Of a stretch of DNA of 64,000 nt, positions 16,631 to 62,702 are shown one piece after another. The stretch lies in the IMG/VR virus record IMGVR_UViG_3300030294_000676; one strand, given 5' to 3'. This DNA is from a virus. Taxonomy: Duplodnaviria; Heunggongvirae; Uroviricota; Caudoviricetes. Position 1 is the first letter of the stretch. Each line of letters opens with the position of its first letter. The notes beneath the pieces are model-generated. The model searched no databases. It was not told the origin of the DNA and saw nothing but the letters and a program-made list of their open reading frames with translations. Both the position numbers and the translations under genes were made by a program.

Positions 16631-16978
16631 TTAAAAAGGTAATATTATCATTAATTCTTTTCTAATTTCATAACTTAGTTTTTCAAACCAACATATAAAT
16701 TCGTAATTATCTGTATTATTAGTTAATGCAAATAATTCATGATCATAACAACATGAACCAAAACCTCTAACATATCGACCACAAACTTCAATTTGTTGAC
16801 TATATATTAACTGATGTGGTTGATCTGGATCTTGATAACCATATACACAACAAAGTCCATCGGGTTCACTTTTGTAATAACATGTCCAAAATCACCATTC
16901 TGATTGTGGTACATCATCAAATTCTTCTTCAAGTCCAGATTCAGGATCTATATCTAAATTTACTGTTACTAATCTCAT
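16631..16978 (-). CDS. Cys/Trp-rich hypothetical protein with an in-frame TGA (codon 16892..16894). Paralog of 16989..17267
   Basis: Minus-strand ATG at 16976-16978 to TAA at 16631-16633. One internal TGA in ...PQSEW[TGA]FWTCYY.... Both paralogs share a Cys-rich core and end in LPF. Confidence 0.5.
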
Positions 16979-16988
16979 TATTCTATTT

Positions 16989-17267
16989 TTAAAAAGGTAA
17001 ATTATTTCTTATTTCATCAGGTAAGTTATTCATCCATTCTATAAATTTAGGATGATCTAAATGTTCATCAATAATAAGTAGTCCAACAGTTGCTGAACAT
17101 TGTCCAGGATAACCTCTTGTTCCATTTACTTTTATCATATCACTAAAACTAAATTTATCATAGCCAATATTACCACCATAAAGACAACAACTTGCATTAG
17201 CACATTCCATAAGACAACCTGTAAAGAAATACCATTTATACTCTGAATCTTCACCGTATTCATTCAT
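16989..17267 (-). CDS. Cys-rich hypothetical protein (92 aa), paralog of 16631..16978
   Basis: ORF track. ...EYKWYFFTGCLMECANASCCLYGG...LPF. Confidence 0.55.
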   Translation of the reverse strand: MNEYGEDSEYKWYFFTGCLMECANASCCLYGGNIGYDKFSFSDMIKVNGTRGYPGQCSATVGLLIIDEHLDHPKFIEWMNNLPDEIRNNLPF

Positions 17268-19881: not shown

Positions 19882-19957
19882 TGAAAAGTATTATTGGTGA
19901 ACGCAAGTGCCACTCCTTATTTTTATCTTGCTTATTGTCTAAAGACTAATACTTTAG

Positions 19958-20041
19958 TGGGATGTGGTGGAGTCAAACCACCCGAGTCCGAAGACACCTA
20001 AGTTACAGTCAGGCCCGCTATAAGCTACGGTATAACATCCC
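19958..20041 (-). tRNA. tRNA-Tyr (anticodon GTA), type II
   Basis: Anticodon stem CCTGA/TTAGG, loop CTGTAAC, long variable arm, T-arm GGTGG-TTTGACT-CCACC. Confidence 0.8.
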
Positions 20042-20046: not shown

Positions 20047-20991
20047 TCATACATTATGTACAATTATTTGTAAATCAGCAAATTGTGTGATTAACTTCTT
20101 ATGACCATTAATAAAATCTCTAGCTGACATAACCTTTTTATTAGGTAATTGTAATGAAACAATCTGAAGACTACTTTTATTACAATTTATAAAAAGTTTA
20201 TTATTTTCAACACAAATTAATTCTCCATCTAAGAAATCACCTTTAACACGTCCAGTATACATACATGCATCTTTAATTTTAACTTCAGTATTGTTATCTG
20301 GTAAATAAAAGAATACTCCGTGATTCGATTCATATGCCTTCATTTTTGCATATACATCATCAACATTTTTATTAAAATCAAGTAAACAATCATCTTTAGT
20401 TATTTTACAACAATATGTAGCTTCACTTTCTATCTGTGGTCTTAAAATAACTCCACGAGTATATTTAGTGATTGTTAGAAGAATATTTTCAGCAGCTAAG
20501 TTTGATAATTGATCAAGAAGCATAATATATCCCATTCCTACAGGTAGATACATTTTACGTTGAGTAATAATACTTCCAGCATCTACAGCAGCATTCATTT
20601 TAATAAATGTAACTCCTGTTTCAGAATCTCTATTCAAAATAGCAGCTTGAATACAAGAAGCACCTCTATACTTCGGTAATAATGAACCATGAATATTAAT
20701 TGCACCATATTTAGCAGAATCAAGTATTTTCATTTTAATTATTTGTCCATAAGATGCAACAACAATTAAATCAAAATCAGTACTAATTATACGATGTTCA
20801 AGTTCATTAATATCATTAGCAGTATATACTAAACAACCTAAAGCTTTACCAGCAATATAAATAGGTGTATTTTGTACTACTCTACCGAAACGTCGTGGTG
20901 GTGTTGTTATAACTGTAACTTGATAAATTTCATGTAATTTTTTTAATGCTGGAACTCCAAAAATTCCATTACCAATAAATAATATCTTCAT
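20047..20991 (-). CDS. fmt: methionyl-tRNA formyltransferase
   Basis: NIHGSLLPKYRGASCIQ, ETGVTFIKMNAAVDAGSII and the C-terminal VSLQLPNKKVMSARDF align closely with E. coli Fmt (NVHGSLLPRWRGAAPIQ; LSLQPAGKKAMSAQD). 314 aa. Confidence 0.85.
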   Translation of the reverse strand: MKILFIGNGIFGVPALKKLHEIYQVTVITTPPRRFGRVVQNTPIYIAGKALGCLVYTANDINELEHRIISTDFDLIVVASYGQIIKMKILDSAKYGAINIHGSLLPKYRGASCIQAAILNRDSETGVTFIKMNAAVDAGSIITQRKMYLPVGMGYIMLLDQLSNLAAENILLTITKYTRGVILRPQIESEATYCCKITKDDCLLDFNKNVDDVYAKMKAYESNHGVFFYLPDNNTEVKIKDACMYTGRVKGDFLDGELICVENNKLFINCNKSSLQIVSLQLPNKKVMSARDFINGHKKLITQFADLQIIVHNV

Positions 20992-21407: not shown

Positions 21408-21822
21408 ATATTCCTTTTAAATACCAATAATCTTCACATTTTTTAGAATATGATTTACATTCATTTTCAATATGTCTCCAATTCTTTCTTACAAAAGAAG
21501 TTTCTTCATATTTAAAATAAGTTTTACCATCTATATAACTCTCGGGTTGTAAAAATCTAAATCCTTCAACTTCTATTTCTTTACGTTCAAAATTATATTT
21601 AGGTTTATCAGGAAAAATCGGAGGAGTTATAATCTGATTCCAACTTTTAGCTGAATGTTCTTTACGTCGACCATATTGAAAAGTGTAAGGATTATAATAA
21701 TTCTTACTATTCCATCGTTTGTCATATCTTTCACATACTGAAAGTTGAATCATTGCAGTTTTATGAACATTAGGGCCATTTAATTTAACTCCTATTCTTT
21801 TTAAATAATCTAAACATTTCAT
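21388..21822 (-). CDS. hypothetical protein (144 aa)
   Basis: ORF track. Confidence 0.55.
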   Translation of the reverse strand: MKCLDYLKRIGVKLNGPNVHKTAMIQLSVCERYDKRWNSKNYYNPYTFQYGRRKEHSAKSWNQIITPPIFPDKPKYNFERKEIEVEGFRFLQPESYIDGKTYFKYEETSFVRKNWRHIENECKSYSKKCEDYWYLKGIFDENNN

Positions 21823-21842
21823 TTTATCTATTTTTATATTTG

Positions 21843-21925
21843 TACTCGAGGTCGGACTCGAACCGACACATCTTTCGACATATGCTCCTAAGGCATACGC
21901 GTATTAACCATTTCGCCACTCAAGC
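21843..21925 (-). tRNA. tRNA-Leu (anticodon TAG), type II
   Basis: D-stem GCG/CGC, anticodon stem TATGC/GCATA, loop CTTAGGA, T-arm GTCGG-TTCGAGT-CCGAC. Confidence 0.75.
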
Positions 21926-21930
21926 ATTTG

Positions 21931-22012
21931 CACATCAGGTAGGATTTGAACCCACGAACCTTTCGGATTAGTTTTGGAGACTAACTACTTTAACCGCTTG
22001 TATACTGACATA
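21931..22012 (-). tRNA. atypical tRNA with anticodon CCA (Trp identity: CCA plus G73) but type-II-like architecture (3-bp D-stem, long variable hairpin)
   Basis: Anticodon stem TTAGT/ACTAA, loop CTCCAAA, variable arm TCCGAAAGGTTC, T-arm GTGGG-TTCAAAT-CCTAC, discriminator G. It is the only CCA-anticodon tRNA found in the array. Confidence 0.6.
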
Positions 22013-22017
22013 TTTGC

Positions 22018-22096
22018 TCCCCCAAGGAGGACTCGAACCCACATGTCTCTCGACATATTCCGAAGAATACGCGTCTGCCAATTACGCCATTGGGGA
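22018..22096 (-). ncRNA. tRNA-like RNA with normal acceptor, D-arm and T-arm, but with two tetraloop hairpins (UUCG and GAGA) in place of an anticodon arm
   Basis: TCCCCAA-TG-GCG...CGC, then TATTC-TTCG-GAATA and ATGTC-GAGA-GACAT, then T-arm GTGGG-TTCGAGT-CCTCC and TTGGGGG. Confidence 0.45.
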
Positions 22097-22102
22097 ATTT
22101 AG

Positions 22103-22191
22103 TGGGGGCGGAGGGCTTCGAACCCCCATGTCTCACGACCGCTATGGTCTAACCTATATTTAGCTGCGGCTACCAATTTCGCCACACCCCC
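22103..22191 (-). tRNA. Leu-type (type II) tRNA-like with non-canonical anticodon loop ATATAGG (apparent anticodon ATA)
   Basis: Acceptor GGGGGTG/CGCCCCC, D-arm GCG-AAATTGGTAGC-CGC, 4-bp anticodon stem CTAA/TTAG, T-arm GGGGG-TTCGAAG-CCCTC. Confidence 0.45.
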
Positions 22192-22207
22192 GATTGTTTT
22201 TTTTTTG

Positions 22208-22280
22208 TGATCTGACTGGGATTTGAACCCAGAACCCCCGCCTTAAAAGGGCGATGCTCTACCAGTTGAGCTATCAGATC
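22208..22280 (-). tRNA. tRNA-Lys (anticodon TTT)
   Basis: Acceptor GATCTGA/TCAGATC, anticodon stem TCGCC/GGCGG, loop CTTTTAA, T-arm CTGGG-TTCAAAT-CCCAG. Confidence 0.8.
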
Positions 22281-22288
22281 TTGTAAAT

Positions 22289-22339
22289 AACCACTTGGTT
22301 GTAGCGACACTACCAAGTGGTTTGTTGCCGAAACAACAA
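22289..22339 (-). other. two strong hairpins between tRNA-Lys and tRNA-Phe (possible processing or attenuation element)
   Basis: Perfect 11-bp inverted repeat aaccacttggt / accaagtggtt (22289..22322) and a 6-bp hairpin ttgttg-ccgaaa-caacaa (22322..22339). Confidence 0.4.
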
Positions 22340-22356
22340 CGGTCCTAAACCGTAAG

Positions 22357-22429
22357 TGGACTCTGTTGGTTTTGATCCAACCTCTCATGCTCTTCAGGCA
22401 TACGCTTTCACCAGATTAGCTTAGAGTCC
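22357..22429 (-). tRNA. tRNA-Phe (anticodon GAA)
   Basis: Acceptor GGACTCT/AGAGTCC, anticodon stem TATGC/GCATG, loop CTGAAGA, T-arm GTTGG-ATCAAAA-CCAAC (non-canonical T-loop). Confidence 0.7.
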
Positions 22430-22434
22430 TTAAA

Positions 22435-23214
22435 TTATATTTTATCCCATTCATCATCAGACAAACTATTTATTTCTTTCTTTGAAGAAGGTATATTAAA
22501 ATGTTTACACCATTTTCTAATAGCATTATCTGATCTATTGTATAATTTACCAATATTAATAAATGTTTCTGTGCGAACTAAAGTTTTTAAATATTCACGA
22601 GTTATACCAAGTTCATCGTAAAAATCATTAGCTATTCGTTTAGCAGAACAACTTAAACATAAACCACTTACAGAAGAACTTGTTATAGTATTACCACAAG
22701 AATTACAATATAATGCATCTATAACTTTATCTTTAACATTTTTACCTTTATAATTATCAGTAAAAGCATGACAGTTTGGACATAATAATTTAAGATTATT
22801 TAATTCATTATTAGTTTTAATACCATCTATGTGGTGTGTTTCTAATGGAATAGGTTCTCCCATTCATTTAGTATTATCACAACATTCACATTTATGTTCT
22901 TTTAGATTATTTTTTAATAATTTATCTCTTAACTTACTTGTTTGTGTATATGCTGAATCTTTACAAAAGATTGTATCTAAAGTGTACACATTCTTAGTTT
23001 CATTTGAAGAATTTCTTTTAAAATGAATTGTGCTAATTTGATGTTTTTTTATCTTAGTTTGAATTGTTTCATAATTACCAGCAGTTAAAGGCAACCCATA
23101 ATATCTACACACATCTGCAAAAGAATAACTTTCTTTTACAATTTTTTCTAAATTTTCTTTTGAATATTTGTTTTCCATAAATTGAACTATTATATTAATA
23201 GTACAAAGATACAA
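22435..23214 (-). CDS. HNH homing endonuclease with an in-frame TGA (22864..22866) at a conserved Trp position. Listed as two ORFs in the track
   Basis: ...KEHKCECCDNTK[TGA]MGEPIPLETHHIDGIKTNNELNNLKLLCPNCH.... The CxxC...HH...N...CPNCH motif spans the TGA. Related HNH proteins have ...EW.GKP... at this point. Confidence 0.65.
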
Positions 23215-23261
23215 AAAATTTTCGAAAGTGCAAAATATATTTAGTTAAATATTGTTAATAG

Positions 23262-23290
23262 CAGAAAGAAACCACCGAAGTGGTTTATTC
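23262..23290 (-). terminator. terminator hairpin with cgaa tetraloop overlapping the stop codon of 23285..23821
   Basis: aaaccac-cgaa-gtggttt (23269..23286), followed on the minus strand by CUUUCUGCUAUU. Confidence 0.5.
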
Positions 23291-23821
23291 AAATAATCCT
23301 GAAGGTGTATTATGAAATTTATTATATAAAACATCTAATGTATAGGATTCATTATCTTTATTAACAAATAATAATTCTTCATCAATTATTGTCGGAGTGT
23401 AATTCTCCTTTAATACTTGTAAAAATGATTTAGTTCTTGTTACTGTGCCCCCAAATCTTGGATCATCTCCATAATTAATGATATAAGTTCCTGACGATGG
23501 TGTCATACTAGCAAGAACATCATTATGAACATATTCTGATCTACCATCATGAGTTATTGTTTGACTAAATTCTTCAAGTAAACCTCTAATCATATCATTA
23601 CTGATATTAAATTCATTAGCTCCTGATATTTTATATTTATCCTCATCATTCATAGATTGACTACTCATAGTAATTGTTTGAACTTTTCCAAACAATCTAC
23701 GCATGCTTTCAACAACTCCAAAAAGAGGTCTTGGACCTCGTCCATTTAATGCATCTTCAAACCATTCTAAAGACTGCATTAATACTTTATCACCTACTTT
23801 ATATCGCTCTGTACCTCTCAT
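23285..23821 (-). CDS. paralog family A member 1 (178 aa)
   Basis: Shares N-terminal RYKVGDKVLMQSLEWFED and C-terminal NESYTLDVLYNKF with the next three genes. Confidence 0.6.
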   Translation of the reverse strand: MRGTERYKVGDKVLMQSLEWFEDALNGRGPRPLFGVVESMRRLFGKVQTITMSSQSMNDEDKYKISGANEFNISNDMIRGLLEEFSQTITHDGRSEYVHNDVLASMTPSSGTYIINYGDDPRFGGTVTRTKSFLQVLKENYTPTIIDEELLFVNKDNESYTLDVLYNKFHNTPSGLFE

Positions 23822-24176
23822 ATATTTCTTTTAAACTATATGCATCATTATTATCATTTATAAAATACAATCCACCTTCATCAATAAGTGGTGTATAATT
23901 CTTTTCTACATATTCAGGAAAAGATGAAGCTATTCCTTCAATCATATCATTACTAAAATTCCAATGACGTGGATCATCTACTAAGTGATATAAAGGTATA
24001 TATGCATAACCTGCTTCATTATTTGAAATTACTTGTTCTTTACCAAAAAACTGACGCATATCATAAATTAATCCACCTTCAACAGCTACATGATTTTCCA
24101 TCATTTCATCAAACCAAGCTAATGATTTTAGTCTAACAACATCACCAATTTTATACTTCTTTAAAGAACTCATCAA
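23799..24176 (-). CDS. paralog family A member 2 (125 aa)
   Basis: KYKIGDVVRLKSLAWFDE ... NDAYSLKEIYERY. Confidence 0.6.
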   Translation of the reverse strand: MMSSLKKYKIGDVVRLKSLAWFDEMMENHVAVEGGLIYDMRQFFGKEQVISNNEAGYAYIPLYHLVDDPRHWNFSNDMIEGIASSFPEYVEKNYTPLIDEGGLYFINDNNDAYSLKEIYERYRAI

Positions 24177-24609
24177 ATATTTCTTTTAAAGTAAATGAAT
24201 TATTATCTTTATCAGTAAATGTTAAAGTTTCACCATCAAGAAATGGAGTATAATTCTTTTCAAGATGTTCAGGAAATTTATTTGGAGTAATAACATCCCA
24301 TGAATATTGATCAGGATCAATTATATTTTCATGTCTATGTATTAATTCAGAAGTTTTTATATTATCAATCATTTGATCAGTATACGTATATTCATTATCA
24401 CTACCACCACTGCAACCTGCTAAAACATATCCACAATAATTTGTATCAACATGAGTAATAACTTGAATTGTTCCAAAATAAGGTCTCATATCACTAGCTA
24501 AACCTAATCTAACATCACCTCTATCGTCATGTACATCAAACCAATCTTTAGATTTCAAATGTACACATTGTCCTACTTTATACTTAACTGTTGGTAGTGA
24601 ATCTCTCAT
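24151..24609 (-). CDS. paralog family A member 3 (152 aa)
   Basis: KYKVGQCVHLKSKDWFD ... NNSFTLKEIFDEFF. Confidence 0.6.
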   Translation of the reverse strand: MRDSLPTVKYKVGQCVHLKSKDWFDVHDDRGDVRLGLASDMRPYFGTIQVITHVDTNYCGYVLAGCSGGSDNEYTYTDQMIDNIKTSELIHRHENIIDPDQYSWDVITPNKFPEHLEKNYTPFLDGETLTFTDKDNNSFTLKEIFDEFFKEV

Positions 24610-25153
24610 ATAACTGTGTTAAAGTAAATGAATTATTTTCATTATCTGTATAAGTTACAACTCCATCATAAGCAAATGGAACAAACTTCTCAACATATTG
24701 TATAAATGCTTTAACGTGAATTGAAAGACTGTTTGAAAAACCTAATAATCCACTAAAATCAGTAGTACCTCTCATTCTACCTCTCAATTCTTGTAATGAA
24801 AGTTGTTCATACATACTTAAAGCACTTGACATACTTGAAGTACCTGAAGTTAAACTAGATCCTATGGTATTATACATACTTACTAATCTATCATATCCAT
24901 TAGTTGTAATTGGCATATCATAATACTTATCAACCATATCTATTGAGAAATACCAACCTTTAGAATCACTTTCAATATTAAATAATTCAACACCTCTTAA
25001 TTGAGATCCTCCAATTTTTACAGATTTTATAATATGTTCTTTACCAAAATATTGTTCCATATCATTAGTCAATATTGGCAAGAAATCTGCTTTTTTCTCA
25101 TCATACCATTCTTTAGGTTTTAATAAAACCTTCATTCCTTGTTTTAAAATCAT
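24584..25153 (-). CDS. paralog family A member 4 (189 aa)
   Basis: GMKVLLKPKEWYDE ... NNSFTLTQLYERF. Confidence 0.6.
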   Translation of the reverse strand: MILKQGMKVLLKPKEWYDEKKADFLPILTNDMEQYFGKEHIIKSVKIGGSQLRGVELFNIESDSKGWYFSIDMVDKYYDMPITTNGYDRLVSMYNTIGSSLTSGTSSMSSALSMYEQLSLQELRGRMRGTTDFSGLLGFSNSLSIHVKAFIQYVEKFVPFAYDGVVTYTDNENNSFTLTQLYERFTTNS

Positions 25154-26046: not shown

Positions 26047-26526
26047 TTATCTATTATTAATAATATTACTAATGGTTCCTTTACTACTAATATTATATTT
26101 TTCCATAATTTCTTTATAAGTATGCCCTAAATTTCGGTATGCTTTAATTTCTAAAACTAATTCATCAGAATATTTTTTATTAGCATTAGATGCAATTCTA
26201 ATTCTTTCTTCTTTAGGTTTATCCATCATATTATCACTATATGATCCAATTTCAATATTATCCCAAGAATTATTTAATCCGTTACCATCTAAATGTCTAA
26301 CTACTATATCTTCGTTAAAAATAATTTCTCCAAATTTTTGATATGCTTGTAATCTATGTACTTTAACTGGAATATGTTTTTCATTTAATCTAATATTAAA
26401 TTTTTTATAATTTTTATTATAAATAGTTCCTGTTAAAATTTTTTCTTTAGGATTTAAAATATCACCATTTATAGTTATTTTATATCCTTTTTCAATTGCT
26501 AATAATTCATTTTTACTTCTTTCCAT
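26047..26526 (-). CDS. HNH homing endonuclease (about 159 aa; start moved to an internal Met)
   Basis: VVRHLDGNGLNNSWDNIEIGSYSDN (HNH), with a C-terminal DNA-binding-like tail. It abuts the tRNA-like element at 26531. Confidence 0.65.
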   Translation of the reverse strand: MERSKNELLAIEKGYKITINGDILNPKEKILTGTIYNKNYKKFNIRLNEKHIPVKVHRLQAYQKFGEIIFNEDIVVRHLDGNGLNNSWDNIEIGSYSDNMMDKPKEERIRIASNANKKYSDELVLEIKAYRNLGHTYKEIMEKYNISSKGTISNIINNR

Positions 26527-31375: not shown

Positions 31376-32806
31376 TTATTTACTTGTTTTTAAATCGGCT
31401 TCAAGATAACTCTTAGCAATAGTGCGAATTTCTGTCCAATGTTGATCTCTCATTAATTTACCATTACGATAAACTATTTCAAGTTCATCAGCATATCCAT
31501 TATTAATACCATATTGTTCTTTAGAACTTTCGATAGTAATGAATTCTGATCCGGCTTTATGAAGTTTCAAAATACCAGCTTTTGAAGCTTTAGTCATATC
31601 TCCTTTAGGAGATTTACGAATATCTTTTGATTCTCCATCAATTACAGCGAAACAGCATTTTACTGCCCAACGATCTGTATCTCTGGTCAATCCTTCAACA
31701 AGCAAACCACCACCTGAACCAACCGCAAAGTTTTCACAAGACCAACCAGTTTTAATGTATTCTGAATAAATATCAACGATTGAATTTTCATTCATACCAT
31801 CTCCTTGAATTAAGCCTACATTATGATTAATTACTCTGTAATCTACTTCATTTAAGTGATATCCAAAAATATTACCAAGCATTTCAGAATACTTAATCAT
31901 ATTTGTTAACGGAACACCAGAATCCGGACGTAAAATAGTTCTACCTGGACGTGCGATAATACGTTGTTTGATTGCTTCTGAACCAATAACATTTTTAATG
32001 AAATTAGTATCATCATAAGAATCAATAACAATTGATACCATAGCATCGTCACCAGCGCGATCAAATTGAGCATTGACATAATCAAATTCTCCCTGACCAG
32101 GACCAAATACAGTTGCTACTGAGTGTTCAGTTGCCCATACAGATTTTCCTACGGTTGCATCTCCGTAATAGTCTTCAATAAATTCCATTGCTGGAACATT
32201 ATCAGAACCATCAGAAAAGATTAAAGCAGCAGAACCACCTAAACAAGCAGCTTCATGACCTTGAGCACCTCTTAATCCAAAATCATTAACTACATAATCC
32301 AACATAGCGTTGTTAGTAGAGATTTTGAATGATGGAGTAATACCTTTATGAATATTATACATACGAGTAGCAACGGCAACTGGATACCAATTCCACATTA
32401 ACCAAGGTTCGAAGTGACTAACCATTGGTGCAAACCACTCTTCAGTAGCTTCAATTGTATAACAAACATTACCAGTTGGAACAACAGTTCCTTCTTTTAC
32501 AGCTTTGATTTCTAAAGGATAATATCCTAAATCGCGAACTTTTTCCCAAATTTCTTGAGGGAAATAACCAGGGTTACCAAAAGTATTTAAACTTCTACGA
32601 GCACCACGTTCAATATCTTCATTAGTGACAACAGTCATAAAATATTCTTTTATGAAATATTGTATACCATAGAAAACAATATGAGAGTGTTGACCTCCTA
32701 CACGAGGTTCTCCATAAGACATAAGTCTTGTCAATCCCGAAGGACGTTGCGTCCAATGCACAAATTTATATGCATCAGTTGCGGTTGTTGGATGAAATTT
32801 TGGCAT
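31376..32806 (-). CDS. nadV: nicotinamide phosphoribosyltransferase (NadV-type)
   Basis: 476 aa. N-terminal ATDAYKFVHW matches the NAMPT signature (ATDSYK.TH). Size and layout match phage KVP40 NadV. Confidence 0.8.
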   Translation of the reverse strand: MPKFHPTTATDAYKFVHWTQRPSGLTRLMSYGEPRVGGQHSHIVFYGIQYFIKEYFMTVVTNEDIERGARRSLNTFGNPGYFPQEIWEKVRDLGYYPLEIKAVKEGTVVPTGNVCYTIEATEEWFAPMVSHFEPWLMWNWYPVAVATRMYNIHKGITPSFKISTNNAMLDYVVNDFGLRGAQGHEAACLGGSAALIFSDGSDNVPAMEFIEDYYGDATVGKSVWATEHSVATVFGPGQGEFDYVNAQFDRAGDDAMVSIVIDSYDDTNFIKNVIGSEAIKQRIIARPGRTILRPDSGVPLTNMIKYSEMLGNIFGYHLNEVDYRVINHNVGLIQGDGMNENSIVDIYSEYIKTGWSCENFAVGSGGGLLVEGLTRDTDRWAVKCCFAVIDGESKDIRKSPKGDMTKASKAGILKLHKAGSEFITIESSKEQYGINNGYADELEIVYRNGKLMRDQHWTEIRTIAKSYLEADLKTSK

Positions 32807-33253
32807 TTATTTAAATTTATTTTTAAATTCTTCAATACTATTGTATAAAGGAATATTATATTTAGAACATACAATTTCTATATTACCTTTTCTCCAAAAT
32901 CCTTCAGGACAAATTACATGTAACTTTTTAGAAGTTGCATATAAACCTAATTCTAATAAACTAATTGGAGACATAGTTTTAGGATCAAAATACATAATAA
33001 TTATATCAGAAAAATCTAATGCGTGTAATTCCCAAGAAACTTGTTGAAAAAATTCAGGATTATCAAAAGATTGAACCCAAGAACTATCCCAATTATCTCT
33101 ACGAGGATTAAATATATTAAAATCTTTTTCAAAATATTTTGTCATAGTATCTTGCCAATTTTCAGCTTGACCCATTTCAATACTACCTGCTAAAAACATA
33201 GAAGGTTTATGTATATCTCGTTGATTTATATTATTTGGAGCTTTAATTACCAT
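32807..33253 (-). CDS. nucleoside 2-deoxyribosyltransferase-like (PF05014 fold) protein
   Basis: SMFLAGSIEMG (like the NDT N-terminal IYLAGP.F) and DPKTMSPISLLELGLYATSKKLHVICPEG (like D.GTAFEIGYA...GKPV, Glu conserved). Confidence 0.55.
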   Translation of the reverse strand: MVIKAPNNINQRDIHKPSMFLAGSIEMGQAENWQDTMTKYFEKDFNIFNPRRDNWDSSWVQSFDNPEFFQQVSWELHALDFSDIIIMYFDPKTMSPISLLELGLYATSKKLHVICPEGFWRKGNIEIVCSKYNIPLYNSIEEFKNKFK

Positions 33254-33381
33254 TGTTTAAATATGATCGTTAATGTTTTTAATGAATGTACCTAATACAA
33301 TTATTACAACGATACAAATACCTGTAAAAATTATACCTTCTTGTAAATTCATTGTAGTAATTGCGTTAAAGTACGTTTCCA

Positions 33382-33720
33382 TTATAGTTTTATTAATTTA
33401 ATAAATTTTGAAGTGTCTTGTTTAATAACATCGTGTTGAAATCTTTCATAAAATTTAATATCAACTGCTTCAAATTCATGAACAAACCATCCAAATTTTT
33501 GAAGTTTAATAATATCTGCTTTAGGAAACCATTGATATAAACCCTCTAATGATTCAGTAACTGATAACCAGCCTACTAATTTAGGATCAAAATCCATTTC
33601 AAGTTTTGAATTTAAACAAAAATTAAAATCATTATGAATTAATCCTGTAAAAATACCTTTATAATCATACCATAAACCTTGATGGGTATTTATGTTACAT
33701 ACTCTGTAGTATTTTTTCAT
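33382..33720 (-). CDS. hypothetical protein (112 aa)
   Basis: ORF track. Confidence 0.55.
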   Translation of the reverse strand: MKKYYRVCNINTHQGLWYDYKGIFTGLIHNDFNFCLNSKLEMDFDPKLVGWLSVTESLEGLYQWFPKADIIKLQKFGWFVHEFEAVDIKFYERFQHDVIKQDTSKFIKLIKL

Positions 33721-34616
33721 TTTTCAGTATTTTTTAATAAGTCAACTAATAACTTTTTATGTTCTCCAACCAAGATTTTGTCTAGCTCAGGACCGTATGG
33801 GAACCATTTTAAGGCAGCAATATCATCTTGAGGTTGTGGACTACCAAAAGTATATTTACATTTGTATAAATGCGTCATAATTTTAGCATCATGTGAATTC
33901 TTATATCGCCAATCTTCTACACGTTTTGAACAAACGAATTCAAAGTCAGCAAGTTCAAGACCTGTTTCTTCTCTACCTTCACGACGAGCAGCAGCTTCAT
34001 CGGATTCATCAGTAACATCAACAAATCCTCCAACAAAACACCATTCTTTTTCATCAGGTTTTTGACCTAATAGAATTTCACCTTTTTCATTAAAGATTGC
34101 AACATCAACTGTTGAAAATGATCGGGGATATTGTGAAAAAACCGAATAAATTATACCAGCTCTGAAATCAGATGATGCTAATATACGTCCGGCAACTTTC
34201 TTTCTAATATCTGTTGCAGATATATAGACTTCTGGTTCAAGTTCAGTTGTTTTCCAATTTCCAGTATAATATGGAATAAACGAATCTTTACCTCCATAAA
34301 GAGTAACTGTTCCAGATGGAAAAATATCTCTTACTTTAGTACGAATTTGAGTAGACCATACTTCATTGGATTTACAATCAGCAAGTGGTACAATTGAAGA
34401 TATTCTATTTCTAAAATGTGCTTCGATCATAGCTTTACGGGTAATAAAATCCAATGGATTTCTTTGAGTACCCATTGCAGATGTAGTTCCTAAGAATAAA
34501 ATTACCTTTTCGTGGTTTGCAAGAACATGTTCAATTAACTTGATATGTTCAGTATGCAATTCGTGTAGCTGAAATCTCCCGATAACAACTCCAATTTCTG
34601 TTTGAGTTTCGTTCAT
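33717..34616 (-). CDS. natV: bifunctional NMN adenylyltransferase / Nudix hydrolase (NatV/NadM-Nudix type)
   Basis: GVVIGRFQLHELHTEH (nucleotidyltransferase HxGH-type motif) and the Nudix box GGFVDVTDESDEAAARREGREETGLE. Confidence 0.8.
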   Translation of the reverse strand: MNETQTEIGVVIGRFQLHELHTEHIKLIEHVLANHEKVILFLGTTSAMGTQRNPLDFITRKAMIEAHFRNRISSIVPLADCKSNEVWSTQIRTKVRDIFPSGTVTLYGGKDSFIPYYTGNWKTTELEPEVYISATDIRKKVAGRILASSDFRAGIIYSVFSQYPRSFSTVDVAIFNEKGEILLGQKPDEKEWCFVGGFVDVTDESDEAAARREGREETGLELADFEFVCSKRVEDWRYKNSHDAKIMTHLYKCKYTFGSPQPQDDIAALKWFPYGPELDKILVGEHKKLLVDLLKNTEK

Positions 34617-34984
34617 TATGGATTTAAAAATTGTTTTAGCAATTCATCATTTAATATTGTGTCTGAATTATTTGCATAAAATTCCGCAAAATCAAACATT
34701 TGTTGTTTAGTAAATTTAGGAATATTAATAAAATATAATTCTTTAAATTGTTCAAAAGTAATTTCTTCTCCTCTAAGTTGATCAAATATACCTTGTACAA
34801 TATCTGATCCAGATCTCGCCTCAAGATTATTTACTACAATAGAAATATCATTACTATCTGAATGTTCTTTAATGTTAGTTGTGTGTGATCCTACCCATGA
34901 ACAATTATTTTTAAATATTATTTCTTGAACAAATTTAAATTGATCCCTAGTAAGATGATGTATTTTAAAATTTTCGATTATCAT
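34616..34984 (-). CDS. paralog family B member 1 (122 aa)
   Basis: MIIENFKIHHL...VQEIIF ... C-terminal ...LNDELLKQFLNP. One of five tandem paralogs. Confidence 0.6.
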   Translation of the reverse strand: MIIENFKIHHLTRDQFKFVQEIIFKNNCSWVGSHTTNIKEHSDSNDISIVVNNLEARSGSDIVQGIFDQLRGEEITFEQFKELYFINIPKFTKQQMFDFAEFYANNSDTILNDELLKQFLNP

Positions 34985-35352
34985 AATTTTAAGAAGTCAG
35001 TTAATACATCATCTGGAGATGATGCGCCAACTATATTGTTAGTGTAATATTCAGCAAATGCAAGGATTTTCTCTCTAGATATACGTAAAGTATTAGCATA
35101 TTTTTCTTTAAATTGATCATATGTTAATTCTTCTCCTTCAAGACCATCAAATGTACTTTGGGTAACTACTACACCGGATCTTAACATACCTTTAGATGTC
35201 ATACATAAAGTAATAGTATTACTAGGACTAAACATTCTTAAATCTTTATCTAAGCTGCTTCCCCATCCACCACCATCGCGAAATACCATATTTTGAACAA
35301 TTTTAGATTGTTCATTATCAAGATGATATATTTTAAAAGGTTTTATTTCCAT
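34981..35352 (-). CDS. paralog family B member 2 (123 aa)
   Basis: MEIKPFKIYHL...VQNMVF. Confidence 0.6.
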   Translation of the reverse strand: MEIKPFKIYHLDNEQSKIVQNMVFRDGGGWGSSLDKDLRMFSPSNTITLCMTSKGMLRSGVVVTQSTFDGLEGEELTYDQFKEKYANTLRISREKILAFAEYYTNNIVGASSPDDVLTDFLKL

Positions 35353-35725
35353 TTTTTGGTTTTATAAAGTTATCAAATAATTGTTCTATTGTTAATTCAT
35401 CATTTAAATGATCCATACAATATTTAGCAAAATCAATACAAGTTTGTCTACTTGTTTCACCTTTACCAAAATATCTAATTTTAAATTCTTCTAATGTTAT
35501 TTCAGGATTATCATGATTATGAAAATATCCTCCAATAGTTGCATCACCAGTTATAGTATTATTTAAATAATGATATAACCCTTTCCACGAACTACCTTGG
35601 CTATCAACAAGATTAACTTCTGATTTACCATTTCTCCATTTTGAACCATTTTGAAATAATAGTTTTTGAACAAATATGGACTCTTCTGGATTATTTACTC
35701 TTATTTTAAAATTCTCATTTATCAT
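35333..35725 (-). CDS. paralog family B member 3 (130 aa)
   Basis: MINENFKIRV...VQKLLF ... MDHLNDELTIEQLFD. Confidence 0.6.
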   Translation of the reverse strand: MINENFKIRVNNPEESIFVQKLLFQNGSKWRNGKSEVNLVDSQGSSWKGLYHYLNNTITGDATIGGYFHNHDNPEITLEEFKIRYFGKGETSRQTCIDFAKYCMDHLNDELTIEQLFDNFIKPKNGNKTF

Positions 35726-36110
35726 TTTTCAGATTTAATATATATTCATCATATAATTCTTCAAATGTTTTTTCATCATTTAAATGGTTCATACAATATT
35801 GTACAAACAAAACATATTTATTTTTTTCTGAATGAATAGAGTCAGTTACATATTTACTACAAAAATCTGCAAATGATATTTCATTTTTATCATGTCTATT
35901 AAACGATGATGTAGAAGTTATATCAGTAAATCCTCCAATTTTTTTAGTTACAGAATTATATTCAAGTCCATTCCAATTTATATTTGGATTAGGTCCAAAT
36001 AAAACTGTTTCTTGACCTTCTCTCCATTTAGCTCCATTAGAAAACAAAGTTTCTTGAACTATTTTATGTTCTCTTTCATCTGCAATTTTAATTTTAAAAC
36101 TTTCAATCAT
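35715..36110 (-). CDS. paralog family B member 4 (about 131 aa; start set to the internal Met matching the paralog N-termini)
   Basis: MIESFKIKIADEREHKIVQETLF ... MNHLNDEKTFEELYDEY. The ORF-track start at 36176 would overlap member 5. Confidence 0.55.
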   Translation of the reverse strand: MIESFKIKIADEREHKIVQETLFSNGAKWREGQETVLFGPNPNINWNGLEYNSVTKKIGGFTDITSTSSFNRHDKNEISFADFCSKYVTDSIHSEKNKYVLFVQYCMNHLNDEKTFEELYDEYILNLKNDK

Positions 36111-36471
36111 TTTTCCAATCTTTAAATAGTTCTTGTGGCGTTTTTTCATCATTAAGGTGATCCATGTAATATTCAATGAATTTAAACATGATATCAGTAG
36201 TAATTATAACATTTTTAGTTGAAACATTAAAAATATCATATTTTTCAATAAATTCATCATAAGTAATTTCTTTATGCTCATGATCATCAAAATGTACATT
36301 AGTATTTCCAAAACCAGTCATTTGTTTTGAATGATATCTATAACAAATTCCTTCATAATAAAATGAAGATAAAAATTTCTCTAATAAACCCATACTACTT
36401 AATATTCTCTGAACAGTTTTTATTTGATCAGGATTACTAACTTTCATCTTAAAATTTTCTACTATTTCCAT
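36103..36471 (-). CDS. paralog family B member 5 (122 aa)
   Basis: MEIVENFKMKV...VQRIL ... MDHLNDEKTPQELF. Confidence 0.6.
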   Translation of the reverse strand: MEIVENFKMKVSNPDQIKTVQRILSSMGLLEKFLSSFYYEGICYRYHSKQMTGFGNTNVHFDDHEHKEITYDEFIEKYDIFNVSTKNVIITTDIMFKFIEYYMDHLNDEKTPQELFKDWKND

Positions 36472-36486: not shown

Positions 36487-36893
<407 letters not shown>

Positions 36894-51487: not shown

Positions 51488-53644
51488 TTAAAACTTAATT
51501 TTAAGCATACGTTTAAATGAACCTTGTACTTTGACAATAAGTTCATCACGAACAGTTGCATTGAAACCTAAACCAGATAACTGCTTATCTGCCGGTGCTA
51601 TCATAGTGGTGTTACCCAATACTTCAAGTACTTTACGATGTTCTGCTAATTCAGGTATTAAGTTCTCTGCGTGGAAACTACGAATAGAAGATGGAGATTT
51701 ACATTTGTCTAACATGAAGAAGTAATGTTTGTTTCCAACATTATTATCTCCCCAATGATTCGGACTCAAGCAAACTAAGTTTACTTTATGAAATTCATTG
51801 GTTTGTATATTGTAAAGTTCTCTTGAACCATTAACTGGTTCAATTTTATGATCAATAGTAAATTTACCATTTTTCAATGTAACTTCAGCAATAGTAACCC
51901 ATTGATGACATTTAGTTGCAGGATATTCATATTGAAAGATTTCTCCATCAAATTCAATTTCTGCTTTACCACGACCACCTGTTGTTCTAAAATTCCAATT
52001 ATGAATTTTACAAATATACTTACCTTCTGGCATTTTGTTAATGTCAGGAAAAGTAATATTCTCAACAGGAATATATCCTGCTGGGGCTGCTGAAGTATAA
52101 TCAACATCTTGAACGCCACCAGATTGACTATCAGTACGATTATTCCAACCAACACGTCGTCCAGAACCATATGTATTATGAACAATATCATCGGCACGAT
52201 GAGAATTACCAGGCATGAATACATGTAAATCCATTAATGATTGATTAGGTTCTAGTTCATTCCAAGAATGACTAAAACGAAATACACCATCAACACGACC
52301 ACCTGATGCAGAAACTGCTTCACGTAACTGAGATTTACCAGCTAAATTACCATTGAACGTCCAACTATAGTTGTTATCCCATTTAAATATTGACTTAGAA
52401 TCCGGATTATTAGCAGTAGTTAATGACACCATATTACCACCGTGATTGTTTGCTAAGAAAGCTTCAACTGATATACAAGCAGGAAGGATATCCTTCATAA
52501 ATGATTCAATAGATACTTCTTTAACATCATCAAACTCGCTACGTTTGTGACGAGTTGACACAGCCGGTTTAACAGAATCAAAAATTGATACAGATGGAAT
52601 ACTACCATCACCTACATTACTATGGAGAATTTCAGCAACTTTGATGTCGTCGAGAATTGCAAAACGTCGATTAAACGATTCAGTGTATCCGTTATTTTCC
52701 ACAAACTTTTGAGCTTCCTCAATTTGTTTCTTAGTAATAGGTGCGACAGCTTTCATATAGTTAGCCGGATCAACACGTTTGTTCCAAGATTGGACAGCAG
52801 CATTTAACTCTTTACCTTCTGATAACTCCGAGCATAACACTCCAAGTAACTCATTTCTGAATTTTGCAATAGGTAAATTGTAAGATTTTATCCAACACCA
52901 TGCAGCACGTTTGTTAGCAGCAAGAGCATCATATTCTTTTTTCAAAGGTATGAATTGCTCAACTTTATACAAATGTGTTTGACCATCAAGTAATGAACCT
53001 TGAATAATCAAATCTTTTACAAGATTCAATGTATCAATGTGAATTTCTTGCATGGCGCGTTCAAATACTTCTTTCGAAGATCTGAAATCAGCCATAATTG
53101 TTGCACTTGACTTACCAGTCTTATCAACATACATAGCTGGAATATCCAGGTGCATATGATTGAATGTAACTACTTCGTTAGGTTTAACAACACCGAATTT
53201 TTCAGCTTCTTCTCTGGTATAACGTTTATCGTTTTTGTCAATACCTAAACGAAACTTAGTAAGAGTTTTCTTACATTGTTCATAAGGTAATGAATTCAAT
53301 TCATCATACGTTTCCGTGAAAATGTTTGCTATTGGAGCTTTACTTAAAGCAGCAGACAACGCGATTGTTACAGGTAAGAATTCACCAGGGCCTTCAAAAT
53401 CAAATAATGAAAGAATTCCATTAGCTGGTGTGATTGCTACGATATTACCGTAACGACGAAGGAAATTCTTACACAAATTACAATTGTGTTCAGAACTTTC
53501 CGGATCTCTAAACATAGGATCATCTTCAAATGATTTGAGATATAAATCCCACACTTGATCACCCGTCATTTCAGACCTGAAAAGTTTACCCACTTCACAC
53601 ATTAGTGCAAGTTGGGCTTGAAGTTGTTTGTTAAAATTTAACAT
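51488..53644 (-). CDS. large hypothetical protein (718 aa)
   Basis: Long intact ORF. No catalytic motif recognised by eye. Confidence 0.65.
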   Translation of the reverse strand: MLNFNKQLQAQLALMCEVGKLFRSEMTGDQVWDLYLKSFEDDPMFRDPESSEHNCNLCKNFLRRYGNIVAITPANGILSLFDFEGPGEFLPVTIALSAALSKAPIANIFTETYDELNSLPYEQCKKTLTKFRLGIDKNDKRYTREEAEKFGVVKPNEVVTFNHMHLDIPAMYVDKTGKSSATIMADFRSSKEVFERAMQEIHIDTLNLVKDLIIQGSLLDGQTHLYKVEQFIPLKKEYDALAANKRAAWCWIKSYNLPIAKFRNELLGVLCSELSEGKELNAAVQSWNKRVDPANYMKAVAPITKKQIEEAQKFVENNGYTESFNRRFAILDDIKVAEILHSNVGDGSIPSVSIFDSVKPAVSTRHKRSEFDDVKEVSIESFMKDILPACISVEAFLANNHGGNMVSLTTANNPDSKSIFKWDNNYSWTFNGNLAGKSQLREAVSASGGRVDGVFRFSHSWNELEPNQSLMDLHVFMPGNSHRADDIVHNTYGSGRRVGWNNRTDSQSGGVQDVDYTSAAPAGYIPVENITFPDINKMPEGKYICKIHNWNFRTTGGRGKAEIEFDGEIFQYEYPATKCHQWVTIAEVTLKNGKFTIDHKIEPVNGSRELYNIQTNEFHKVNLVCLSPNHWGDNNVGNKHYFFMLDKCKSPSSIRSFHAENLIPELAEHRKVLEVLGNTTMIAPADKQLSGLGFNATVRDELIVKVQGSFKRMLKIKF

Positions 53645-53648
53645 GATT

Positions 53649-53855
53649 TTACTTGTTACGAGTTAATCGATTTTTTAACGTTTCAAGTTCTTTTTGAATA
53701 CGTGCACGATCAGCATCAGTAAGTGGTACAATACCAGCAGTTTTAGTTTGCTTAGTACCAGCTTTTAACTGTGTTTCCAATCTTTCGATTACTGATTTGC
53801 GACGTATAATTACTTTCAACTCCATTGAGTGGTTAACTCCATTCTTCTTCTTCAT
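53649..53855 (-). CDS. hypothetical basic protein (68 aa)
   Basis: ORF track. Confidence 0.5.
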   Translation of the reverse strand: MKKKNGVNHSMELKVIIRRKSVIERLETQLKAGTKQTKTAGIVPLTDADRARIQKELETLKNRLTRNK

Positions 53856-54237
53856 AAGAACTTCTTTGTTAATTTATTAATAATATTGATTTGTTTTGAA
53901 AAAACCTATTAGCACAAAGTCCTTTCGGTATCTCTGACTTCAAAGACAGGCTAGGACTCGAACCTATATCTCACTTTCATGTATGCTATTGTAGCGACTC
54001 TACAGCTACTCCATTTACTTAACCACATGCCCAACTAATAAGTTTAAAAAAAGAATTGTCAATCCTTTCCAAAGAGATTGAAATTATATTAACCATAAAA
54101 ATAATATATCTATAACTCTAATATTTGATCTATGGAATTAATGAACTCATACCATTTCAAGTATAATGCTAAGGTGAGGACTTTGGTTTCTCACAATATT
54201 TATTCACGATCAACTAATTAGCAATTCTCTTATTTGT

Positions 54238-55344
54238 TTACTGAATGATATGAGGTACAAAATACGACATGTTGTCAGTAATTCTTGACGATGTTTCACG
54301 GATACCAAAACCACAAGACTCTCCACCAATAACCCACGATCCTAAGATCGGATACATTCCATCAAAAGACGGTATATCAACAAGTTCTTGGAAGATAAAT
54401 CCTTCTTCTCCATATTCACCTTCAGTTTCTTCAAGAACTTCACCATTTTTTACAAGGGTTACGTTAGCACCTTCTCTTGAGAATATTGGTTTTTTACAAT
54501 AGTTACCAGGAAGCGGTTGATCAGAAGCTTTTAATACGTATGGAGAATTAGGAAACAATTTGGCTACAATAGTAAGTAAATACTTGTTGCTCATAACGGC
54601 TTTCCAAAGAGGTTCGATGAATGTTGTTGCACATACAGGAATAGTTTTTCCAAACTCTTCGTTGAACATCCATTCATATGGATACAATTTAAAAAGAACA
54701 TCAAGGTTATTACCATCAGCGTCAGTAAACAATTCATCATTCGAATGAATTTCTTCAACATCCATCAACGTTACATTCAATCCAGCTTCAGCAGCAGTTG
54801 ATAGTATGTATGCAGTGGTAGTATGATCTTCAAGATTTTCTTTACCACATGCAAAATAATACATATCCGATTGATATTGTGTATGAATGTCTTTCCAACT
54901 TTGAATAAGGGCTTCATGAATTGAATTGAACTGATCATTACCAGGATATACTTCTTCTTTCCACATCCATTGTACAATGGCTGCTTCAAATAGAGATGTC
55001 GGGGTATCAGCATTAAATTCAAGACATTTTGGAACACCATTGATAAATGCAAAATCAAAGCGACCATACAGTGACAATTCATCACTATTCCACGAGTCAA
55101 CGATTACTGGAATCATTTCAGCGGGGATATGTAATTTGTCCCAAAGATTATTATCAATAACATGTTGTACGGCAGCACAATACATTTGATAACATTCAAC
55201 AGTTGCTTTTTCAATTTCTTCAATTTCTTTTGATGAAAAAGAATACACGGCATTTTCGAGCCAATAGTTTTCATTGAATTCGAAACCTAAATCAGATAAT
55301 TTTTGTTTATAATCTGATCTAGGATTTATTTTAAGTCTAATCAT
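54238..55344 (-). CDS. glutathionylspermidine synthase-like (pre-ATP-grasp) protein
   Basis: GRFDFAFINGVPKCLEFNADTPTSLFEAAI matches the GSP-synthetase family signature (RFDF...L.EYNADTPT). Confidence 0.7.
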   Translation of the reverse strand: MIRLKINPRSDYKQKLSDLGFEFNENYWLENAVYSFSSKEIEEIEKATVECYQMYCAAVQHVIDNNLWDKLHIPAEMIPVIVDSWNSDELSLYGRFDFAFINGVPKCLEFNADTPTSLFEAAIVQWMWKEEVYPGNDQFNSIHEALIQSWKDIHTQYQSDMYYFACGKENLEDHTTTAYILSTAAEAGLNVTLMDVEEIHSNDELFTDADGNNLDVLFKLYPYEWMFNEEFGKTIPVCATTFIEPLWKAVMSNKYLLTIVAKLFPNSPYVLKASDQPLPGNYCKKPIFSREGANVTLVKNGEVLEETEGEYGEEGFIFQELVDIPSFDGMYPILGSWVIGGESCGFGIRETSSRITDNMSYFVPHIIQ

Positions 55345-55420
55345 TTTATGTTTTGTAAATGTTTTTGTTAAATAATTGAGGGATTTAACAATGTAAATCC
55401 CTCATTTTCTTTATCGAAAA

Positions 55421-55831
55421 TCAACCACCGAAACCGTGACCACCACCGAAGCTATGACCTGATGATCCAAATCCACCTGAGCGAGATGATGAACCAGTAC
55501 TATGTGAACCACTGAACATTGATGAACGAGTTGGTGCTGCAGTACGGAAAGCCGGTACAGATGACGGACGAGTAATTACATGATTTGCAGAATTACGATA
55601 AGTTCCAGAAGAAGGATAATAATGGGTTACACCTGAAGGACGACCGTTCATAGATGAATAAATCATCCAATAACCAGCGCTATTCCATACAGAGCGATTA
55701 CCACTTTCATCATAGTATTCTTGCCCCGCTGTTGGTGACATAGGATACCCTGAATTTCTTCTACAAGAAGTTGCGCTTCCTGCTACCGCTAAAGCTACTA
55801 AAGCGGCAAAAATTGCATGCGTTTTTTTCAT
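55421..55831 (-). CDS. lipoprotein with Gly/Ser-rich C-terminus (136 aa)
   Basis: Lipobox signal peptide MKKTHAIFAALVALAVAGSATSC, then ...SRSGGFGSSGHSFGGGHGFGG. Confidence 0.6.
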   Translation of the reverse strand: MKKTHAIFAALVALAVAGSATSCRRNSGYPMSPTAGQEYYDESGNRSVWNSAGYWMIYSSMNGRPSGVTHYYPSSGTYRNSANHVITRPSSVPAFRTAAPTRSSMFSGSHSTGSSSRSGGFGSSGHSFGGGHGFGG

Positions 55832-55862
55832 AAAAACTTTATTTAATTAAACTTAGAATTTT

Positions 55863-57278: not shown

Positions 57279-57280
57279 TA

Positions 57281-58676: not shown

Positions 58677-59087
58677 TTATTTATATCGAGGTAAATCTTG
58701 TTTAATTTTACTATATTCATTTCCTCCAATCATTAATCCATTTTTGTAAGCATGAATTTTATTTTCAGAATCAGTACACCATTCAAGATTTACTAATGAA
58801 TTATTTAATTTATTTCCATCTATATGATTTACTTGTAAATTTTCAAAGATTGGTCTAAATGTTAACATTACTATTCTATGAACATGTAATGTTTTTATTC
58901 CATTTCTATTTTCAGCAGTAAATCTTAAATATCCAAATTTATTAGGAGATAATTTTAATATTTTCCCTTTTAATTTTCTTCCAATTTTAGATATTCTATT
59001 TAAACTTCTTATTCTTCCTAAATTAGAAACTTGATATATTTCTTCATATTCAGGAATGTCTTTTCAGATTTCTTCTATTTCTTGCAT
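58677..59087 (-). CDS. NUMOD4 + HNH_3 homing endonuclease with an in-frame TGA (59064..59066) at the universally conserved Trp. The ORF track shows only the C-terminal 63 aa
   Basis: Minus-strand ATG at 59085-59087 gives MQEIEEI[TGA]KDIPEYEEIYQVSNLGRIRSLNRISKIGRKLKGKILKLSPNKFGYLRFTAENRNGIKTLHVHRIVMLTFRPIFENLQVNHIDGNKLNNSLVNLEWCTDSENKIHA.... Matches the NUMOD4 consensus EIWKDIPGYEGLYQVSNLGRVRSL with the TGA in the W position. Confidence 0.65.
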
Positions 59088-59753: not shown

Positions 59754-59803
59754 AACTTTAATTTTTAAAAATTTAATTGATTTATTTTAATTATTTTTAT
59801 TTG

Positions 59804-62700: not shown

Positions 62701-62702
62701 AT

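Follow-up and report, generated by a model that had tools for sequence, protein, structure and literature searches.

An in-frame TGA as a probable tryptophan codon in a hegA-like homing endonuclease gene of a phage with two coding regimes

Results

The stretch of tailed-phage DNA studied here (Caudoviricetes; IMG/VR record IMGVR_UViG_3300030294_000676; 64,000 nucleotides, hereafter the window) carries a gene for an HNH homing endonuclease with one in-frame TGA codon, which we call HEG#2 (homing endonuclease gene 2). On the minus strand, two open reading frames (ORFs), 22864..23214 (116 aa, TTG start) and 22435..22863 (142 aa, ATG start), abut in one frame without a gap. The codon which joins them is a TGA at 22864-22866 (minus strand) in the context AAA TGA ATG GGA, and the protein sequence around it reads KCECCDNTK, then the TGA, then MGEPIPLETHHIDG and, further on, LLCPNCH. 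The true start of HEG#2 is probably the ATG at 23178 (MENKYSK...), the start also used by its closest full-length homologs (P0001 and P0002). Defined in this way, HEG#2 (22435..23178, minus strand) consists of 247 codons and a TAA, the TGA being codon 105 and one of three Trp codons in the gene. The N-terminal 104 codons (22867..23178, minus strand; product P0242, 104 aa) have the first CxxC pair of zinc ligands (KCECC) as their last feature, whereas the C-terminal 142 codons (22435..22863, minus strand; product P0241, 142 aa) encode the HH...N...CPNCH catalytic core, the second CxxC motif pair and a C-terminal tail resembling a DNA-binding region. An earlier reading made from the sequence alone (the sequence-only reading) had placed a CxxC pair upstream and the HH/N/CxxCH motifs downstream of the TGA, and the translation confirmed this. 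The N-terminal part also contains a run of seven adenines (A7; 23044..23050, minus strand), which the comparison of assemblies showed to be shortened to A6, with a shifted frame, in a minority of them.

HEG#2 lies inside the phage tRNA cluster, with the tRNA-Phe(GAA) gene (22356..22429, minus strand) only 5 nt downstream; the same arrangement of an endonuclease followed by tRNA-Phe was found in the closely related contig L002. The region upstream of the gene (23179..23260, minus strand) is conserved along with it in L002 and in a second close relative, L003, and one promoter-like match, TTTG-N19-TAnnTTTG, occurs at 23204-23234. The Bacteroidetes-type promoter motif TTTG-N18-20-TAnnTTTG was not enriched across the window (4 matches vs 2.5 expected), and a promoter role of this match is therefore a mere guess; the motif likewise gives no support for assigning a host.

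The sequence-only reading had taken the two ORFs for a single HNH gene, and the family matches support this along its full length. The bridged translation of 247 residues matched phrog_10822 ('HNH endonuclease') with residues 3-225 on profile positions 6-243 of 245 (E 1.3e-45), so that the similarity spans both halves, and hegA (F-TflIV) of phages T5 and BF23 aligned to residues 7-222 in a single tblastn piece. The Pfam models HNH and HNH_3 scored under their cut-offs, and the family call thus rests on PHROGs and on the homologs, 637 of which were found at E<=1e-5. The residues C97, C100, H116, N128, C133, N135, C136 and H137, which make up the beta-beta-alpha-metal core, are invariant in 119 sequences and all are present in HEG#2. 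By this similarity the product is an HNH homing endonuclease of the hegA/F-TflIV type, with predicted activity in DNA cleavage and homing.

The residue at the TGA column is Trp in 117 of the 118 aligned homologs and Gln in the remaining one, as the sequence-only reading had stated for the position before the G(K/E)P motif. The proposed change of TGG to TGA also agrees with the two closest relatives, L002 and L003 (78% and 75% aa identity, respectively), which have TGG at this codon in the same tRNA neighbourhood. Among 80 distant metagenome relatives, the codon is TGG in 60 and TGA in 3. Two of these three contain extra in-frame TGAs (2 and 3 in all), at least one more per gene at a Trp position, and clearly come from TGA-recoded phages. 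The third (L013, 1501-2286) is a hegA-like gene 38% identical to HEG#2; its only TGA occupies exactly this Trp codon, and here too an ATG comes next. It lies on contig Ga0302173_10000002 (165.7 kb, JGI-style prefix) of a related large phage with its own tRNA cluster. At the DNA level, the HNH core of this gene is far closer to HEG#2 than its remaining parts are, which suggests exchange between copies. Several in-frame TAG (L034, L036, L038) or TGA codons (L045, L077), some of them at positions where homologs have Gln or Trp, were also seen in other hegA-like genes of metagenomic phages; the family thus recurs in recoded phages of both types.

All genes of the window lie on the minus strand. 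With 30% G+C, 24 tRNA genes and one tmRNA gene, the window looks like part of a large phage genome, and it contains tRNA genes, genes of nucleotide and nicotinamide adenine dinucleotide (NAD) metabolism and then replication genes. Of the 88 ORFs that reach 100 aa, 12 are closed by TGA (12-14 ORFs by count), in some cases with ATGA stop/start overlaps, and reading it as a sense codon hardly lengthens the ORFs. The codon totals were 248 TGG vs 3 in-frame TGA. The median distance to the next TAA or TAG was 6 codons after TGA stops and 8 codons after TAA stops, which gave no clear signal. Recoding of TGA throughout the window was considered and rejected, as TGA is a normal stop there. The fmt gene (methionyl-tRNA formyltransferase; 20047-20991, minus strand), located within the tRNA cluster, closes at a TGA 5 nt before tRNA-Tyr, and the public code-4 gene calls lengthen it by 31 codons across this tRNA gene. 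These calls were set aside as evidence either way because fmt would run into tRNA-Tyr. The idea that the public JGI, ENA and Logan code-4 calls are merely an artefact of Prodigal at low G+C was dropped as well: they are wrong for fmt and right for the late arm of the genome described below.

The window was scanned for gene-internal stops, defined by a coding signal on both sides and no restart, with all three stop codons treated alike. Exactly three were found, all of them TGA (first bases 22866, 59066 and 16894), and every TAA or TAG 'pair' proved to be two neighbouring genes with an ATG within 0-4 codons. In the neutral spectrum of nonsense mutations in these genes, TAA makes up 51-56% of new stops and TGG>TGA only 2-12%; the all-TGA pattern therefore exceeds chance. 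Besides HEG#2, the scan detected HEG#1 (58677..59087, minus strand), which encodes a homing endonuclease of 136 aa with NUMOD4 and HNH_3 domains and has a single TGA (59064-59066) at the conserved Trp of 'WKDIP'. It was identical in all 7 assemblies compared by DNA. The view that HEG#2 is the second endonuclease with a TGA at a Trp codon was thus upheld. The third gene (16631..16978, minus strand) encodes a small Cys-rich protein of 115 aa and contains one TGA in frame (16892-16894). The alignment with its only paralog (16989..17267) extends over this codon, where the paralog has Tyr, so that Trp is not established there. A third endonuclease gene of the window, HEG#3 (26047..26526, minus strand; HNH_3 and HTH domains, 159 aa), has no TGA and serves as a contrast case. 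Taken together, the endonuclease genes of the window contain 2 TGA and 4 TGG vs 1 and 244 elsewhere (Fisher p=0.0014).

No tRNA gene with a UCA anticodon was found within the window, even when 'Tyr(ata)', '?(tc)' and the Trp(cca) gene close to HEG#2 were included. Sequence beyond the window was reached by walking outward along public contigs from the genes at the window edges, about 115 kb of sequence being examined overall. Contig L093 shares window positions 53200-64000 (99.98% identity) and is continued by L102 and L103 with overlaps of 100%; L102 runs on the same strand as the window with an offset of 63,042 (L102 11924 = window 74,966). The junction between the arms is identical in the JGI and ENA assemblies, and the gene direction reverses about 6-7 kb past position 64000, where a divergent arm begins.

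A 74-nt tRNA gene with the anticodon UCA was found by ARAGORN at L102 11924..11997 (plus strand), i.e. at window position 74,966-75,039, about 11 kb past the window end. The Rfam tRNA model gives it 62.9 bits, and its predicted fold of minimum free energy is a cloverleaf. Its features of tRNA-Trp identity are A1:U72, G73 and the anticodon loop CUUCAAA, and no gap is needed in its alignment with E. coli tRNA-Trp. The gene sits in the divergent late arm, away from the cluster of 24 tRNA genes.

The genes of this late arm are rich in in-frame TGA. The large terminase gene (phrog_6681, E 1.8e-70) has 10 TGA and 4 TGG, the portal gene (phrog_6547) 2 and 1, a GIY-YIG endonuclease gene identified by PHROGs 4 and 0, and two further ORFs 4 and 0 and 5 and 1, respectively (all within L103 13042-19965, plus strand, with 2-10 TGA each). 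In-frame TGA occurs in 9 of 11 ORFs of at least 70 aa over 10 kb, with totals of 30 TGA vs 7 TGG, and code-11 gene calls break these genes into fragments. Trp is the commonest residue at 9 of the 10 terminase TGA columns in 41 homologs, and the commonest residue is aromatic at all 10. Nearer to the window, the divergent arm contains the gene of a GNAT-type acetyltransferase with five in-frame TGA and no TGG (L102 8909-9280, plus strand) and a PhoH gene with one in-frame TGA which is spanned by the Pfam match (L102 15210-15920, plus strand). At the other end, the replication arm past window position 1 (L095, L101) has a single in-frame TGA, and this again lies in a homing endonuclease gene (L101 17267-18154, plus strand; GIY-YIG and NUMOD3 domains). 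The TGA stands between RKYG and NVFE, the other Trp codons of the gene are TGG and the neighbouring replication genes are free of in-frame TGA.

Near-identical copies of the phage (99.9-100% identity) are frequent in metagenome assemblies from JGI, ENA and Logan. No close relative was found in the GenBank phage collection by megablast of 21800-24200 or by tblastn of an 885-aa protein, and an exact 29-mer had no match in IMG/VR. The TGA of HEG#2 is kept in every near-identical assembly examined, and no TGG allele at this codon was found in the population. The N-terminal product P0242 is called on 17 contigs, P0241 on 23 and P0243 (247 aa) on 13; the cluster membership of P0242 and P0243 shows that the in-frame A7 is the major allele and A6 the minority one. 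The A6 frameshift was present in 3 of the first 4 near-identical assemblies compared, and their three point differences are all nonsynonymous. The A7/A6 length difference appears in assemblies made independently, and as A6 occurs on two different haplotype backgrounds, the change is recurrent or recombined. The ratio of nonsynonymous to synonymous substitution rates (dN/dS) on the window branch of HEG#2 was approximately 0.33, compared to 0.24 and 0.32 for intact relatives. Two assemblies, L097 (Ga0311335_10000051) and L098 (Ga0302271_10000012), break near HEG#2, one starting 2 kb upstream and the other ending 356 nt downstream, which hints at population heterogeneity or repeats in the tRNA and endonuclease region.

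Several other features of the window were observed. The phage tRNA-Trp(CCA) gene (21930..22011, minus strand; Rfam tRNA 43.5 bits) is an ordinary UGG reader and not a suppressor. It is one of four class-II-like tRNA genes which follow each other with gaps of 4-5 nt at 21842-22191 (minus strand): 'Tyr(AUA)', one without an anticodon, Trp(CCA) and Leu(UAG). The long variable arm and the 3-bp D stem of Trp(CCA) are unusual for tRNA-Trp, and the anticodon AUA is unusual for Tyr; a normal Tyr(GUA) gene is located at 19957-20041. The tRNA-like gene at 22016-22097 (minus strand) has normal acceptor, D and T arms and a long variable arm, with an 8-bp helix and a UUCG tetraloop in place of the anticodon loop. 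ARAGORN assigned it the anticodon '(tc)' and it did not reach the Rfam tRNA threshold; it could be a decayed tRNA or a tRNA-shaped RNA of another role. The tmRNA gene (36487-36893, minus strand; Rfam 107 bits; tag peptide GNKTISFARTAFMAAA) deserves mention in a phage that alters stop-codon reading. Directly upstream of HEG#2, four tandem paralogs of 125-189 aa without a Pfam match were found at 23285-25153 (minus strand), and more tandem paralog families lie around 34616-36471. Genes of the NAD-salvage type occupy 31376-34616 (minus strand): 31376-32806 carries the Pfam domains NAMPT_N and NAPRTase, 32807-33253 is a nucleoside deoxyribosyltransferase-like gene and 33717-34616 looks, by its sequence, like a nicotinamide mononucleotide adenylyltransferase and Nudix gene.

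Discussion

HEG#2 is very probably an intact hegA-like HNH homing endonuclease gene in which TGA is a Trp codon, in a phage that partly uses code 4, and its full-length product would depend on a suppressor tRNA. What makes Trp the most likely meaning of the apparent stop is that TGA stands for Trp in the late genes of this phage, which has a UGA-reading tRNA of its own. The sequence-only reading had described the gene as split, and this is the wrong word for a gene that is most likely intact and whose TGA is a Trp codon in late genes of the same phage, with the opal-suppressor tRNA gene lying about 11 kb past the window end. The phage (about 175 kb, 30% G+C) probably counts among those in which TGA has changed from a stop to a Trp codon (genetic code 4) over part of the genome. 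Its genome has two arms: the arm represented by the window is compatible with the standard code and TGA is still a stop there, whereas the late arm mostly uses TGA for Trp. From the TGA stops, the ATGA overlaps and an early arm that hardly contains any TGA in frame, we infer a host with the standard code.

In the mechanism that we propose, release factor 2 (RF2) of the host would stop translation at the UGA early in infection, and the mRNA would give only a 104-residue fragment without the His-His catalytic strand. The tRNA(UCA) would then be produced, charged with Trp and would compete with RF2, inserting Trp at UGA. The full-length endonuclease would be possible only once the suppressor tRNA beats host RF2; it would show up alongside the late proteins, and its synthesis would perhaps be delayed. 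The single TGA may thus act as a gate on the timing or dosage of endonuclease production.

Several points weigh against this explanation. No phage gene for a release factor or for tryptophanyl-tRNA synthetase (TrpRS) was seen in the approximately 115 kb examined, and the release-factor-like GGQ motif had no occurrence in any sequence examined. Neither the suppressor tRNA nor the late genes are part of the window; what joins them to it is a chain of metagenome assemblies from a population that is almost clonal. Many of the homologs in the terminase columns may come from recoded phages translated in code 4, so that their Trp is not fully independent evidence, and the amino-acid identity assigned to tRNA(UCA) is a prediction from its sequence features. 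The minority A6 frameshift means that some copies of HEG#2 may truly be in decay. Neutral drift could likewise have turned one of the three Trp codons into TGA, provided that the gene can bear late or low expression, and it may have no need to be expressed early; TGG>TGA replaces G by A, and the genome is AT-rich.

A stronger version is put forward tentatively and seems rather doubtful: the one opal codon would be retained on purpose, as a 'time lock' on those free-standing homing endonucleases that a recoded phage has in its standard-code arm. Three unrelated types of endonuclease (hegA-like HNH, NUMOD4 with HNH_3, and GIY-YIG with NUMOD3) have exactly one TGA each, placed at a Trp position, and their neighbours have none. 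Such a lock would hold cleavage until the suppressor tRNA appears, e.g. sparing phage DNA that is unreplicated or unmodified. The TGA at the same Trp codon in the L013 gene would fit selection for the gate.

Among the other explanations, decay of the gene survives best, although it is unlikely. According to it, a TGG>TGA nonsense mutation killed a dispensable selfish endonuclease, which is now a pseudogene, and homing endonucleases often degenerate. The A6 frameshift in three of the first four assemblies, the three nonsynonymous differences and the lack of a TGG allele in the population are in agreement with decay. This explanation was favoured at first, was weakened when A7 was found to be the majority allele, and was dropped in view of the GNAT gene with five TGAs, tRNA(UCA) and the recoded terminase. 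Against decay, the phage decodes TGA as Trp elsewhere and encodes tRNA(UCA). Moreover, all three gene-internal stops of the window are TGA and none is TAA or TAG, though TAA is the most frequent neutral outcome, the dN/dS of HEG#2 is like that of intact relatives, and the TGA is the only lesion of the window allele.

Leaky readthrough, in which the ordinary Trp-tRNA(CCA) of the host and of the phage (21930..22011) misreads UGA at a low rate without a suppressor and yields a little wild-type protein, is quite improbable as the full explanation. The phage does have a tRNA-Trp(CCA), and the base after the UGA of HEG#2 is A; UGA followed by A is a leaky context in E. coli. It is the competition between Trp-tRNATrp and RF2 that sets the outcome at UGA in this bacterium, with more readthrough when tRNATrp is overexpressed (PMC10570021). 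Nevertheless, the phage has a dedicated tRNA(UCA), and late genes with up to 10 TGAs each could not be expressed by near-cognate leakage. Leakage may add some expression before the suppressor accumulates, yet it is unneeded to explain HEG#2.

The production of two polypeptides, with a stop at the UGA and a restart at the adjacent AUG, would give proteins of 104 aa and 142 aa, either separate or reassembled around zinc. This is very improbable, even though an ATG directly follows the TGA and the same TGA-ATG is found in the L013 gene. The Met after the Trp is ancestral, with W-M in L002 and L003 and M in 15 of the 118 homologs, which means that the ATG did not arise to allow a restart, and there is no Shine-Dalgarno-like sequence upstream of it. 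The break would part the first CxxC zinc ligands from the His-His strand of one beta-beta-alpha-metal fold, and other TGA-bearing genes have no start codon after the TGA. Finally, a Mollicutes-like host with code 4, in which TGA would be Trp everywhere and nothing regulated, is very unlikely. The low G+C (30%) would agree with it, and so would the hosts of database phages with a predicted table 4, which are mostly Mycoplasma or Spiroplasma (PMC11210395). Yet TGA closes ORFs, partly in ATGA overlaps, and in-frame TGA is nearly absent over 64 kb (3 vs 248 TGG), read-through of fmt would enter tRNA-Tyr, the two arms differ sharply, which speaks for a host with the standard code, and in code 25 phages sharing the code of their host approximately 90% of genes have in-frame TGA (10.1101/2021.08.26.457843).

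Recoding in which a phage reads TGA as Trp with a UGA-reading tRNA of its own has been described before, though it is uncommon. Predictions of code 4 are rare (0.08% of gut viral operational taxonomic units and 0.13% of database phages, the latter mostly infecting Mollicutes), and a Sup-TCA tRNA is encoded by only 15% of the phages with a predicted table 4 (PMC11210395). Proteomics has been applied to the residues inserted at recoded stops in crAss-like phages with code 15 (PMC9523058). Borges et al. (10.1101/2021.08.26.457843; Nat Microbiol 2022) described low-GC phages with suppressor tRNAs in which structural and lysis genes are recoded and replication genes are not. In the TGA-recoded Agate phages, they found an intron homing endonuclease that prefers TGA for Trp and proposed its delayed production.

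The phage described here resembles the Agate and Jade clades of that study in its low G+C, large genome and phage tRNA with the anticodon UCA, in the concentration of in-frame TGA in structural genes with early and replication genes in the standard code, and in a homing endonuclease within the early region that uses TGA for Trp. The likeness is stated here at the level of these features, and this phage comes from environmental JGI, ENA and Logan metagenomes, whereas the clades come from gut sets. TGA closes about 13% of its early-arm genes, compared to 2.7% in a close standard-code relative of Agate, and its endonucleases with exactly one TGA each are free-standing and belong to three families. 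In contrast to Agate and Jade, no RF1 (release factor 1) or TrpRS gene was seen in the sequence examined here.

HEG#2 belongs to the same family as hegA (F-TflIV) of T5 and BF23, with approximately 30% identity over residues 7-222 and the same domain order, and both genes are free-standing among phage tRNA genes; T5, however, has an ordinary TGG-type Trp and the standard code. Phages of Mycoplasma and Spiroplasma also read TGA as Trp, but there the whole genome and the host share the code, whereas here TGA is a stop in one arm and Trp in the other. In the A1 protein of phage Q-beta, a leaky UGA is read by near-cognate tRNA-Trp and extends a complete protein at low yield. Both cases are alike in that insertion of Trp at UGA competes with RF2 and sets the amount of full-length product; in HEG#2, the UGA is internal, at a conserved Trp, and has a dedicated cognate tRNA(UCA). 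The mechanism of leaky UGA readthrough by near-cognate tRNA-Trp has been described (PMC7026636, PMC10570021).

These results show that no single code translates this phage correctly. Table 11 shatters the terminase, the portal and three endonucleases, and table 4, which is applied by public pipelines, wrongly extends early genes such as fmt, which is driven into tRNA-Tyr. The analysis adds an environmental phage of 175 kb, seen in many samples, to the rare TGA-to-Trp recoded phages with an opal-suppressor tRNA. Homing endonucleases with the recoded codon inside an otherwise standard-code region thereby gain a second, independent case; Borges et al. had proposed this from one intron endonuclease family, and the new case is a second independent hint that recoded stops gate homing endonucleases. 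If this gate is real, it would be a simple and testable way of timing selfish nucleases by a code switch.

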